From NCBI GenBank assembly GCA_043772415.1, contig JAYVGF010000055.1, positions 1 to 32,050 on the forward strand: DNA of 32,050 nt, in the 5' to 3' direction. The notes under the pieces are model-generated. The model was not told the origin of the DNA, did not search any database, and saw only the letters and a program-made list of their open reading frames with translations. This stretch comes from Betaproteobacteria bacterium (GTDB lineage: Bacteria > Pseudomonadota > Gammaproteobacteria > Burkholderiales > JBEEJL01). This document shows positions 21,923-25,255 of the stretch, piece by piece. How positions within the stretch are numbered: position 1 is the stretch's first letter; each line of letters starts with the position of its first letter. Made by a program: the position numbers and the translations under genes.

Positions 21923-24900
21923 TTAGCGGACTGTCGTTTCGCCGCTGGTCCTGGCGTTGTCTTTTTTGAATAAATCCTCATCGAACTTGAATCGCAGGCG
22001 AATAAACAAACCGCTATTGGTGTAATCCGCTGCTGTCAAATCCTTATCGGAAAAACCGCTGAAGTTGTATCCGACGGATAGCCACAAATTCTGTCGCACC
22101 AGGTAGCCTATTTCGGCGCCCGCCGCATATTGCTTGGCGGCACCTTGCGGGCTGTATAACAAGGATGCCATCAGACCCACATCCCAATTTTCCGTCACGT
22201 CGTACACCACGCGGCCGGAACCCAGATAGGCGCTGTAATTGTCCGCGCCGCTTTCTTCCACGCGTTTGGCCGCAATCCGACCCGACCACCACCATGGGCG
22301 GCTGGGGTGGTAATCGCCATGTGAACTGAACACATGCGCTTTTCTAGCATAAGGTTGTACATCGTTGCGCTCGGTTTTGTATTCGTACTTGGCCAGCGCG
22401 TTGAATAAATTGGTATCGGTATCGCGGTAGGCGAAGCCCCACTGGATGCGGTCTTGCATTGCATTACCCGCTGCCTTGTTTTGCGTGTAGAGCCAATAAT
22501 TGCGCGCCAACATGGTCCAGTCGCGGTCAAGTTTGCGCGCCAGCGACAAAGTGGACAGCCAAGTATCGTTGCCAGGGGTCGCGCTGGTATCAAATGCGCG
22601 CCGCCATTCCAACCGCGCCGAGCCTTTCCAGAGCGGGTCAGCCGTGTAATCCACGCCGCCGGTGAGCGCCAACGCTTCAGGGTTAAGCCCGCTCAATATT
22701 TTGAGGTGCTCCGCCGAAGCGGTATAGGCCAAACCTTCCGACACATTGAAGGTATTGCGTAGGCCATTAGCCAATTGCGCATCGCGGCCATTGATAGCGT
22801 CGCGCAAGCGGTATTCGCTGAATAACTGACCGCCGGTCATGTACGTATTATCAACGCCGAACACCAAGGCAGAAGACTTGTCTCCCGGCGTCAGGCTGTA
22901 AGCGGAGCCGAGTCCGGATTGGGTTTCGTAGCGACCGAATAATCGGGTGCGTTCGGCCATTTGATAATTACCACCCAAAGCAAAGCGGCGTTTGTCATCG
23001 CCTTGCACGCCCCCTTCCACTTCACCTAGCACGGTGAATCGTTCAGTAGCTTTCCACTTGGCGCCCAAGCGCAAAGTAGTAGCTTCGAGATGATTGAGCC
23101 CGCCTGTCGCTACGGTTGAGGAAATCGGTGCCAAAGTGGTGAGTGTCGAACCGTTGCCGGCCAAGTTGACGGGATCGACCCCGCCGCCAAAACCGCCAGC
23201 AGGGCTGCCGCCCGGTGCGGTCATTCCGCTCGGACCTTGCGGCAAACTGATCACGCCGTTGGGTGAATCTTCCTTGACGCGGCGAATGCCGAAATCAACG
23301 CTGAAGGTGTCGTTGACGGCCAGTCCTGCGCCGAGTTGCGCCTGCGCGCGCTCGGCACCGGTGAGGTGATCTTCCGATTTGCTCACATCCCCGAACAGCT
23401 TGATTTTTTCCGTGATTTTTACCGCAGCATTGGCACCCGCTTCGCGCCGTCCCTGCGACACAGATGCAGCAGGATTAATGAATTCACTGCCCGCCGCTGC
23501 CGCGAAAATTTTAGCTTCAACATTTTCATCTTTATGTTCCAGTCCTATACGGCCCGCTTTGCCGGAGGTTTCATTTTTGATTTCGCCTGCTTGTCCGGTG
23601 GGTAAAGCATAGCGCGTAGTCAACCCGCCGCTGTTCAAACTATAGGTCGTCGCTTCAGACTGCGCCAGTTCGCCGGTCAACCTTGTCTTGTCGCCCAATT
23701 TGACCGCAGCATTTACGCTGCCCAATTTGTAAGGGGCATTCGGGTTTTGGTCGCTTATCAACGATCCGCCGATTATGGCTGCGCCACCGATGGAGGCTTG
23801 CCCATCAATGCCGCCGACCCAAAAACTTTCGCCGCCGGTATCGACTTCATAAGTAATGCGTACATAAACCGGATCGCCCGAAGGTGTAGTGGAAGGAATC
23901 GCCGATTTGAATAAAATACGTCCTGAAAAAGGCTCGAAGCTGTAATCGGTGAAGCGCACCAATGCAGTGACTGTTTTTACCATGCCCAATTGATTGCGGT
24001 CGCGCACGATCAATTCGACTTTTTCCGAATTCTCCAATGCCGAATTATTGCGCACGGCAAACGGGCCCGAGGTGCCGTTCGCCTGATATTCCTCTACTAC
24101 TTGCTTCAAGCTGTCACGGCTGGCGAACGCGCTGCCGGAAAAACCGGCGTTTTCCCAATGCCCTTTGACGCCGGTTACGCTACGGTTGTACTGACCCAAG
24201 TCACGCAACCGGCTCGACGACATTTTTCCGCCGCTCTCGATGCCGGAATTGTTGTCGGTGGTGAAATCGCCATAGAGTAAATAATTCTTTTTTTCATCGA
24301 TGCGCACATAAAACTTGCTCGATGAACGCGCGTCAAAACCCTTTAGCGAAGCGTCGCCGTACACCGGATAAAATTCTTCCGGCCGGATATCGCGCAACAA
24401 TCGGGCGCGGGTTTCTTTTTCCGAATCGTAGGCCAGCGTCAACAGTGCCTCGCCTTTGATTTTACCTTTGAGGAATACGGCAGCGCGCGCGGCAGCACTG
24501 CCCTTGCCGTCGTTAAACTGCCGCTCGAAATGCCGCAATTCCGCCTCGAATCCATCATCAATGCGCGCAGAAGAAAATTGCGCGGCGTCTTTTTTGGATA
24601 AGCGGATGGCGCCTTCTATCAAACCTGCGGCGATCATTTCACGCACGTCGGGCAGAAAGCTGACCACACCTTCGGCTGTTACCTCTCCGGCAGTCACGCG
24701 GACGCGCACGTCCTGCGCCGCGTCAGGCGCTAACAAGTTGAACTCAGCAACGCCGCCCTGCACTTTGATTTGCGTGCCTGGAGTGACGCGATCCAGATCG
24801 CGACGGCCTACTGACAACTCGTCAGTTCTCGCGTCGGGCAATTGCAAACGGCCGCCCGATACCTCCACGCTAACGATGCCATCCATCGGTAGTCCCGATT

Positions 24901-25255
24901 TATTTTTTAAGCGCACAGTTATTTTGCTGGCGGACTGGCCGTCCGCAGGAAGCCCATCTTTATCCACTTCAACTTCCAGCTTTCCGACCAGTACATTATC
25001 AGCGTAATTAATTCCGCCTCGTTCGCCAGCAAACACTGCTGGCTTATCTTGTGCGGAATTCTGTTCAAAATTTTTCGCCGCGTCGAAGCGAAAATTATTT
25101 TCTTGCGCCAGCGCGCCGGCCGAATAACTGACCAATACCAGCACCGATGCAACGGTAATAGGTCTGCGCACATACGATAATTTATTCAATATATTCATAT
25201 AGTTATATACAGCACTCAGATTCGTGGCAACAACAGGGCTAAGGAGGGTTTTCAT
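21923..25255 (-). CDS. Large putative outer-membrane protein: N-terminal Big_1-like Ig domain, a central unassigned region, and a C-terminal beta-barrel-like region of about 600 aa
   Basis: 1110 aa. AAGGGGA SD before the ATG at 25255, with an alternative ATG at 25198. Hydrophobic leader ending AGALA/QE. Residues about 88-200 read LEVEVDKDGLPADGQSASKITVRLKNKSGLPMDGIVSVEVSGG...VRVRVTAGEVTAEGVVSF, which is invasin/intimin Big_1-like. From about residue 480 there are alternating amphipathic strands with G/N/D turns and aromatic girdle residues, ending in GYNFSGFSDKDL...GLFIRLRFKF plus a 19-aa charged tail. Confidence 0.7.
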   Translation of the reverse strand: MKTLLSPVVATNLSAVYNYMNILNKLSYVRRPITVASVLVLVSYSAGALAQENNFRFDAAKNFEQNSAQDKPAVFAGERGGINYADNVLVGKLEVEVDKDGLPADGQSASKITVRLKNKSGLPMDGIVSVEVSGGRLQLPDARTDELSVGRRDLDRVTPGTQIKVQGGVAEFNLLAPDAAQDVRVRVTAGEVTAEGVVSFLPDVREMIAAGLIEGAIRLSKKDAAQFSSARIDDGFEAELRHFERQFNDGKGSAAARAAVFLKGKIKGEALLTLAYDSEKETRARLLRDIRPEEFYPVYGDASLKGFDARSSSKFYVRIDEKKNYLLYGDFTTDNNSGIESGGKMSSSRLRDLGQYNRSVTGVKGHWENAGFSGSAFASRDSLKQVVEEYQANGTSGPFAVRNNSALENSEKVELIVRDRNQLGMVKTVTALVRFTDYSFEPFSGRILFKSAIPSTTPSGDPVYVRITYEVDTGGESFWVGGIDGQASIGGAAIIGGSLISDQNPNAPYKLGSVNAAVKLGDKTRLTGELAQSEATTYSLNSGGLTTRYALPTGQAGEIKNETSGKAGRIGLEHKDENVEAKIFAAAAGSEFINPAASVSQGRREAGANAAVKITEKIKLFGDVSKSEDHLTGAERAQAQLGAGLAVNDTFSVDFGIRRVKEDSPNGVISLPQGPSGMTAPGGSPAGGFGGGVDPVNLAGNGSTLTTLAPISSTVATGGLNHLEATTLRLGAKWKATERFTVLGEVEGGVQGDDKRRFALGGNYQMAERTRLFGRYETQSGLGSAYSLTPGDKSSALVFGVDNTYMTGGQLFSEYRLRDAINGRDAQLANGLRNTFNVSEGLAYTASAEHLKILSGLNPEALALTGGVDYTADPLWKGSARLEWRRAFDTSATPGNDTWLSTLSLARKLDRDWTMLARNYWLYTQNKAAGNAMQDRIQWGFAYRDTDTNLFNALAKYEYKTERNDVQPYARKAHVFSSHGDYHPSRPWWWSGRIAAKRVEESGADNYSAYLGSGRVVYDVTENWDVGLMASLLYSPQGAAKQYAAGAEIGYLVRQNLWLSVGYNFSGFSDKDLTAADYTNSGLFIRLRFKFDEDLFKKDNARTSGETTVR

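Follow-up and report, generated by a model that had tools for sequence, protein, structure and literature searches.

The window studied here is a stretch of 32,050 nucleotides (nt) from a betaproteobacterium (contig JAYVGF010000055.1 of assembly GCA_043772415.1). On its reverse strand, a gene for a 1,110-aa protein lies between the 3' part of a giant adhesin gene, located upstream, and the gene of an OmpA-like protein, located downstream (Table 1). This protein consists of an Ig-like domain followed by a very large predicted outer-membrane (OM) β-barrel, and is called the barrel protein below. We propose that the three genes probably represent the split form of an undescribed autotransporter-like device, in which a very large OM barrel with an OmpA-like partner exports and anchors the adhesin. 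An initial annotation of the window had called the open reading frame (ORF) of the barrel protein, and the ORF call and the translation confirmed it. Overall, the observations of that annotation were confirmed in part and their interpretation was supported in part.

Evidence for this proposal comes from natural fusions. Fusions were counted over the 150 best family representatives at 50% identity. In 88 of them, adhesin and barrel are one polypeptide of ~1,600-4,600 aa that ends in the Ig-barrel module, and all but one of these (87/88) have a DUF11-SdrD_B module just upstream of that module. Fused forms were found in Mariprofundaceae, Polaromonas, Actibacterium, Verrucomicrobiota and one Armatimonadia metagenome-assembled genome (MAG); their names refer to the passenger domains only. 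Three Stenotrophomonas MAGs contain a single adhesin-barrel ORF of 3,556-3,733 aa with no signal peptide at the junction, and S. rhizophila has the split form. Since the fusions come from independent sources (ENA, JGI, NCBI and Logan), they are unlikely to be assembly artefacts. OmpA domains are also part of some fused proteins: one subgroup (P0317 type) has an OmpA domain that follows the SdrD_B module and precedes the Ig domain, and behind the barrel, OmpA is present in one relative (P0216) and TPR repeats in another (P0186). Because relatives fuse the adhesin, the barrel and sometimes OmpA, the three genes of the window are tied together. Because many other bacteria fuse adhesin and barrel in one protein, the barrel most likely exports and anchors the neighbouring adhesin.

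The gene context was surveyed at 83 loci. The conserved C-terminal 330 aa of the adhesin are encoded immediately upstream of the barrel in 78 of the 83 (as an in-frame fusion in 3), and a homologue of the OmpA-like protein of the window is encoded immediately downstream in ~76. The remaining surroundings vary from locus to locus, and clustering of the flanking ORFs of the 83 loci revealed no further conserved neighbour gene. In the window, just 10 nt (25256-25265) part the stop codon of the adhesin (25266-25268) from the ATG of the barrel gene (at 25255). Thus, the two genes are probably cotranscribed and translationally coupled. A strong ribosome-binding site, GGGGA, is located 7 nt ahead of this ATG. 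Conserved synteny and natural fusions together support the functional tie to the neighbouring giant protein at which the initial annotation had hinted.

The structure of the barrel protein was predicted twice with AlphaFold2 (AF2). The first run used 50 sequences (predicted local distance difference test score, pLDDT, 66; predicted template modelling score, pTM, 0.58), and the second used 57 more diverse sequences (pLDDT 70.7, pTM 0.69). Both models agree on an Ig sandwich, 38 long strands between residues 208 and 1091, and a short helix in the tail. When the AF2 model was compared with the PDB by Foldseek, all matches were large OM barrels. The leading ones, with MtrB (3.9e-9) best and SlpA (4.5e-8) second, followed by LptD and SprA, are the largest barrels solved so far, and TonB-dependent receptors were also among the top matches. 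All matches belong to this one class, which makes the structural class clear, but with TM-scores of only 0.12-0.28 none of the solved folds is close. A soluble solenoid, which the initial annotation had named as the outcome that would speak against a barrel, was not obtained.

Independently of the AF2 models, mean-field direct-coupling analysis (DCA) was applied to a family alignment of 385 sequences (effective number of sequences, Neff, 263). Antiparallel sequential pairing was detected at z >= 2 for 31 of the 37 neighbouring strand pairs, and from strand 7 on most neighbour pairs reached z 4-13. No competing pairing of non-neighbouring strands stood out (maximum z 3.5 among 630 pairs), and a two-barrel layout is therefore unsupported. 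Loop lengths point in the same direction. Over the 37 junctions, turns after even-numbered strands have a mean of 3.2 residues (maximum 6) and loops after odd-numbered strands a mean of 17.2 residues (up to 70), an alternation with a permutation p of 4e-5. Short periplasmic turns and long external loops are the classical signature of outer-membrane proteins. Family-averaged hydrophobicity alternates by >1.5 units in 24 of the 38 strands. The protein thus combines an even strand number, antiparallel neighbour pairing and short turns versus long loops, as looked for in an outer-membrane β-barrel (OMBB). Together, AF2, Foldseek, DCA and loop parity support an OM barrel protein in which the Ig domain comes first and is followed by a very large barrel, as originally suggested.

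The extent of the barrel had to be revised. The initial annotation had assigned ~600 aa to β-hairpins and had left ~280 aa between the Ig domain and the hairpins unassigned, with an usher-like plug or middle domain as one possibility. According to the AF2 models, the β-meander is predicted to span ~880 aa and ~38 strands (range 36-40). The formerly unassigned region is not a separate domain and not a plug: AF2 and DCA resolve it into barrel wall, namely the first seven strands (residues 208-219, 252-265, 270-277, 315-321, 324-332, 359-368 and 372-391), and a conserved 70-residue loop (residues 392-461). The alternation of short turns and long loops also holds through this region.

The loop 392-461 is the most conserved stretch of the whole barrel protein, with a cluster of invariant residues (G397, P398, E411, E414, R418, D437, Y438, F440-F443 and G445). 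DCA couples the flanking residues 372-391 to 462-489 (z 7.3 and 3.8), showing that the 70 residues are a loop insertion and not a middle domain. By parity, the loop is on the long-loop side. It may fold into the lumen, as conserved loops of other transporters do. Among all DCA couplings of the protein, the strongest (score 1.82) connects residues 354 and 513 (window ~24194-24196 and 23717-23719). It joins the long loop 333-358 to the strand 509-519, is unexplained by a simple strand meander, and may reflect packing of this loop on the barrel wall.

The N-terminal domain had been annotated as Big_1 (residues ~88-200). An Ig-like fold was confirmed: both AF2 models show an eight-strand sandwich (residues 90-201, pLDDT 79-88 in the second model), and DCA recovers strand contacts inside it (z 3-5.8). 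Membership in Big_1 was not confirmed. The Pfam match to Big_1 (PF02369, residues 93-146, E 2e-4) scores 21.7 bits, below the gathering threshold of 34.9 bits; relatives score 27-28 bits, and Pfam also gives a weak Invasin_D3 match. In the PDB, the sole match of the family profile is invasin (1cwv), with E 0.31. Because of the subthreshold score and this weak profile match, the domain is termed Big_1-like and not certified Big_1.

The end of the barrel is conserved as well. In the last strand, GLFIRLRFKF, residue G1082 is invariant, R1086, R1088, K1090 and F1091 are conserved at >= 90%, and the hydrophobic alternation is the strongest among all strands. This C-terminal aromatic β-signal is followed by a conserved tail of 19 residues. 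In the tail, D1092 is invariant and L1095, F1096, N1104, L1108 and R1110 are conserved at >= 90% in alignment A1. The motif RLRFKFDE.LF is kept in >= 60% of the 385 family members, and RLRFKF followed by DE.LF is conserved in fused and unfused members alike. Thus, the nonterminal β-signal is a family feature and not an annotation artefact. The initial annotation had described the nonterminal signal with its charged tail as unusual; both are real, but the arrangement is not exceptional, as relatives carry OmpA or TPR domains at the position of the tail.

The same domains are informative on topology. OmpA domains bind peptidoglycan in the periplasm. Since relatives have them fused at either side, the two ends of the Ig-barrel module are probably periplasmic, and so is the C-terminus of the passenger. 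Loop parity agrees with this, because the Ig domain and the C-terminal tail are both on the short-turn side. We infer a periplasmic location of the Ig domain from this parity and from the relatives with an OmpA domain immediately upstream of it.

At its N-terminus, the barrel protein has a signal peptide of 51 residues. An alternative start at M20 (25198) is possible and would give a signal peptide of normal length. All unfused-type homologues have a hydrophobic stretch ending in A-x-A before Q.

The adhesin gene extends beyond the window, which contains its last >2,255 codons. The encoded part has tandem adhesin domains above threshold (SdrD_B 130.7, DUF7507 51.4 and DUF11, the CLIPPER domain, 41 bits) and matches TIGR01451 at 83.5 bits. 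Complete homologues have 1,174-3,191 aa, with one of 3,882 aa (locus L001), and begin with Sec signal peptides, showing that these adhesins are not type I secretion substrates. In the closest complete homologue (locus L022), only DUF7507 and DUF7619 were detected in the N-terminal half, the part in which the cargo of two-partner secretion has its TPS domain; for the window adhesin, this part lies outside the window. The last 330 aa are far better conserved than the remaining adhesin, and the length and composition of the passenger vary widely. This C-terminal part contains DUF11, SdrD_B, four conserved Cys residues, a conserved helix (VLEQVKARR) and a disordered tail with the motif TDSANQ..V.PR, and the module is 38% identical to residues 412-645 of the fused relative P0317. 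We propose a retention role for the DUF11-SdrD_B module, which its conservation and its position in the fusions would suit. The TDSANQ motif was seen only in split-type systems and is missing from all 152 module-carrying fused relatives. This absence fits a role in docking that would be needed only when the chains are separate.

Table 1. Positions of the adhesin, barrel and OmpA-like genes in the window and of features within them
Feature	Positions	Strand	Basis
Giant adhesin gene, 3' part, >2,255 codons; 5' end beyond window	25266..32050	−	Pfam SdrD_B (four copies), DUF7507, DUF11/CLIPPER
Conserved C-terminal DUF11(CLIPPER)-SdrD_B module of the adhesin, proposed retention/docking module	25614..26231	−	Pfam, conservation
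TDSANQ motif in the disordered adhesin tail	25386..25403	−	Conserved in split-type loci
Barrel-protein ORF, 1,110 aa (Ig-like domain and giant barrel)	21923..25255	−	ORF call and translation
Signal peptide, residues 1-51, cut after ALA before QE	25103..25255	−	Translation
Ig-like (Big_1-like) β-sandwich, residues 88-201, probably periplasmic	24653..24994	−	Pfam (subthreshold), AF2, DCA
Predicted β-barrel, ~38 strands, residues 208-1091	21983..24634	−	AF2, Foldseek, DCA, loop-length parity
Conserved 70-residue insertion, residues 392-461 (NGTSGPFAV...DYSFEPFSGRILFK), loop between strands 7 and 8	23873..24082	−	Conservation, DCA, parity
Gly/Pro/Ser-rich 54-residue loop in mid-barrel, residues 666-719, poorly conserved	23099..23260	−	pLDDT <50 in both models, long-loop parity
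Last strand GLFIRLRFKF, β-signal-like motif	21983..22012	−	Conservation, hydrophobic alternation
Conserved 19-residue C-terminal tail (DEDLFKKDNARTSGETTVR), probably periplasmic	21926..21982	−	Conservation, domains of relatives
OmpA-like protein, 380 aa, with signal peptide, downstream of the barrel gene	20756..21898	−	Pfam OmpA 8.7e-11
Peptidoglycan-binding OmpA domain of this protein	20849-21088	−	PF00691, 42.5 bits (cut-off 27.2)

In the proposed mechanism, the adhesin, the barrel protein and the OmpA-like protein would all reach the periplasm via Sec. The 38-strand barrel would be inserted into the OM with its Ig domain and its short tail in the periplasm, and the adhesin would pass outward through it. 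The C-terminal DUF11-SdrD_B module and the TDSANQ tail would stay behind in the periplasm and at the barrel or within it, leaving the fibre on the surface yet anchored. The OmpA-like protein would brace the complex to the peptidoglycan of the cell wall. The window would contain the split version of this device; in most relatives passenger, Ig domain and barrel, with or without OmpA, form a single chain. By its length, the adhesin should be extracellular. An extracellular adhesin with a periplasmic C-terminus needs a segment that spans the membrane, and no conduit other than the barrel is conserved. The conserved Cys residues hint at periplasmic oxidation, and a large lumen would allow folded domains through. 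A more specific proposal, which we make only tentatively, is a pathway that arose independently of type V secretion, in which a monomeric barrel of ~38 strands passes folded Ig-like domains stabilised by disulfide or isopeptide bonds, the last module serves as a plug and OmpA as a brace.

Several observations weigh against the proposed export and anchoring device. The TM-scores of the structural matches are low, and the fold is validated by no solved structure. DCA support is weak for the first six strand pairs (z 0.8-3.3). Closure of the barrel is predicted; DCA gives no more than a hint of it, with z 2.2 (rank 13 of 630) for strands 1 and 38 and no significant signal for a parallel register between them. 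Two loci (L041 and L046) have a barrel gene without an adjacent adhesin, and a paralogous subgroup lacks the OmpA gene. In addition, the data are compatible with an adhesin that is exported elsewhere and merely held by the barrel. In such a case, the adhesin would cross the OM by another route, for example type II secretion, and the barrel would be an attachment point or a plugged socket. The cassette encodes neither an energy source nor a chaperone, and the conserved C-terminal module and TDSANQ would suit pure docking equally well. However, in the fusions the C-terminus of the adhesin adjoins a periplasmic OmpA or Ig domain, so that the chain must span the OM. A protein that is released and then recaptured would lack this topology, and no other secretion genes are conserved nearby. 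We therefore consider an anchor without export function unlikely. An envelope tether like SlpA of Deinococcus, which connects OM and peptidoglycan, appears still less likely. The repeat protein would then be largely periplasmic or envelope associated and no adhesin would be exported. In its favour, SlpA, with a 30-strand barrel and a cell-wall-binding domain, is the second-best Foldseek match, and OmpA domains belong to the system. Yet CLIPPER/SdrD_B stalk passengers of 2,255 to 3,882 aa are typical of surface fibrils (PMC12617251), and with their Ig-like domains they are probably too long for the periplasm. Variable passengers with a conserved C-terminal module also fit exposed adhesins.

Foldseek also matches TonB-dependent transporters and LptD, in favour of an unrelated large porin, or a channel for uptake, whose gene is next to that of the adhesin by coincidence. 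The synteny (78/83 loci) and the fusions (88/150 representatives) make this very improbable, and no plug or TonB-box domain was matched. Hardly any weight is left for a rearranged inverse autotransporter of the intimin/invasin type (type Ve) with Big_1 moved to the N-terminus, although the weak Big_1 and Invasin_D3 matches and the invasin profile match (E 0.31) recall such proteins. In the window protein and three homologues, a cut-off as loose as E <= 10 gave no match to the 12-strand barrel of inverse autotransporters (IAT_beta, PF11924) or to LysM. The barrel is C-terminal and has ~38 strands rather than 12, and the C-terminal tandem Big_1 passenger is lacking. The single, subthreshold Big_1-like domain is N-terminal to the barrel and probably periplasmic. 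The passenger of the relatives is also N-terminal, and consists of CLIPPER/SdrD_B domains and not of Big_1 repeats. The initial annotation was right about the order, Ig first and barrel last, but its comparison with inverse autotransporters leads astray.

Membership in other known systems was rejected as well. For classical autotransporters (type Va), there was no match to PF03797, and ~38 strands stand against 12; adhesin and barrel form one polypeptide, as in type Va, in the 88 fused representatives but not in the window with its separate genes. For two-partner secretion (type Vb), no Bac_surface_Ag, ShlB or POTRA match was obtained, and the barrel is not the 16-strand Omp85-type barrel of TpsB. 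For the chaperone-usher pathway, there was no match to Usher (PF00577), and no other neighbour gene, such as one for a periplasmic chaperone, is conserved in the 83 loci. SprA/Sov of type IX secretion (T9SS) have no sequence match in Pfam, NCBIfam or PDB, only the low-TM Foldseek match. The barrel protein was also rejected as a member of the Omp85, LptD or TonB-receptor families.

Types Va and Vb offer the more informative comparison, because passenger and barrel of the relatives share one chain in which the passenger is N-terminal. As in these systems, the passenger is Sec dependent, precedes a C-terminal OM barrel in the fused relatives, and is accompanied by no cytoplasmic energy component in the cassette. 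As in type Vb, the genes for cargo and barrel are adjacent in the split form, as in the window. In contrast to the 12 or 16 strands of types Va and Vb, the unrelated barrel described here has ~38 predicted strands, an Ig domain on the presumed periplasmic face instead of POTRA, and a dedicated OmpA partner or domain. The passenger consists of isopeptide-type Ig-like domains and not of a β-helix. Type Ve proteins (intimin and invasin) likewise combine an OM barrel, a Big_1-like Ig domain and peptidoglycan binding in the same system. They differ in the opposite order, in a repeat passenger versus a single Ig domain, in peptidoglycan binding by LysM and not by OmpA, and in their barrel, which is unrelated and three times smaller.

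Other systems resemble the cassette in single aspects. The T9SS translocon SprA, whose 36-strand barrel is the largest solved (bioRxiv 10.64898/2026.03.07.710327), likewise forms a very large barrel from a single chain, through which folded domains could pass, and is among the Foldseek matches. There is no sequence relationship, however, and no T9SS C-terminal signal or partner genes are present here. SprA belongs to Bacteroidota and hands its cargo to PorV, whereas the family described here occurs in Proteobacteria, Verrucomicrobiota and others, and its cargo would remain tethered. MtrB-MtrA and LptD-LptE are large barrels that permanently enclose a partner, and an adhesin module lodged in the lumen would be analogous. 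Their partners and functions are different, their barrels have 26 strands, and the sequences are not similar. The RTX adhesin system LapA/LapE also holds a giant repetitive adhesin by a terminal module lodged at an OM pore. It uses type I secretion, a TolC-like trimer and an N-terminal retention module, without a Sec signal; here, a Sec-dependent cargo has its module at the C-terminus, and the barrel would be monomeric.

The family is large. An exhaustive profile search yielded 4,331 representatives at 50% identity (E <= 1e-3), 1,999 of them at E <= 1e-30. An indexed search returned >1,716 clusters at 90% identity, all named "hypothetical" or "Ig-like domain-containing". When species genomes were scanned with a sequence pattern, 445 genomes matched, mostly of Burkholderiales, with some of Stenotrophomonas and Lysobacter. 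When the barrel protein was searched as a single sequence, no Pfam family was above threshold, and neither PDB nor NCBIfam gave a match. A Pfam scan of this protein and three homologues at E <= 10 gave only subthreshold matches to small OM proteins (YfaZ, YadA_anchor, DUF5777, DUF2490 and KdgM), which we read as generic β-hairpin similarity. Clear homology to a family of unrelated function, which the initial annotation had named as a counterargument, was not found. By sequence, the barrel has no relationship to a named family, and it is predicted to exceed the 36 strands of SprA. Unnamed OMBB families with 38 and 40 strands (their families 002 and 003) were predicted from sequence by Solan et al. 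in 2021 (PMC8346858), in a text that gives no accessions, function or gene context. Our family may belong to the same superfamily, the likeness being one of strand number and unknown function only.

A recent study showed that Gram-negative fibrillar adhesins made of isopeptide-type domains are widespread, and noted some with an "OmpA-like anchoring domain", with no barrel discussed (PMC12617251). In the literature searched, we found no description of their route across the OM or of their attachment to it. A description of the present cassette was likewise not found in the literature collection searched, which was incomplete. The barrel family provides a concrete candidate for the export of such adhesins, namely a giant barrel dedicated to them, encoded separately or as a fusion and combined with an anchor in the cell wall. 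The more specific pathway tentatively proposed above would, if real, account for the way in which Sec-dependent fibrillar adhesins of the CLIPPER type come to the cell surface in Proteobacteria, Verrucomicrobiota and other diderms. With 38 strands, a monomeric barrel would exceed any solved barrel and extend the known size range of β-barrels, with relevance for assembly by the β-barrel assembly machinery (BAM), for nanopores and for surface display. At least 4,331 clusters (50% identity) without a family model, named "hypothetical" or after passenger domains, also represent a sizeable annotation gap.

Variants of the cassette were noted in other genomes. The two barrel genes without an adjacent adhesin are located at 9809-13078 (L041) and 9794-13135 (L046); the latter keeps its OmpA-like gene, and the same genome has a complete cassette (L047). 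Janthinobacterium and Massilia harbour a second, paralogous adhesin-barrel pair without the downstream OmpA-like gene (L052, L056, L064 and L068). In Massilia aquatica and M. mucilaginosa this pair shares the genome with the main cassette. The adhesins of the paralogous pairs begin with a different conserved N-terminal domain (...ILFVEDN.ADYR.L...). At a further locus (L083, 5202-20246), a fused member of 1,970 aa (P0205) is surrounded by genes for further CLIPPER proteins (505, 280 and 1,358 aa) and for a 746-aa protein without annotation, an arrangement that recalls a multisubunit fibre locus.

Directly downstream of the cassette, the window encodes a small protein of the PP0621 family, a PilS-like sensor kinase with a six-transmembrane (6TM) domain and a PilR-like sigma-54 response regulator (17281-20614, reverse strand). 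These genes are probably not members of the cassette, because the neighbours differ at other loci. Another OmpA-family protein (328 aa), separate from the one in the cassette, is encoded at 9577-10563 on the forward strand. Finally, the reverse strand encodes a 356-aa protein with two DEP domains (3648-4718; Pfam 6.3e-32) and a 160-aa SET-domain protein (5932-6414; 1.6e-21), eukaryote-like signalling or chromatin domains amid bacterial housekeeping genes.

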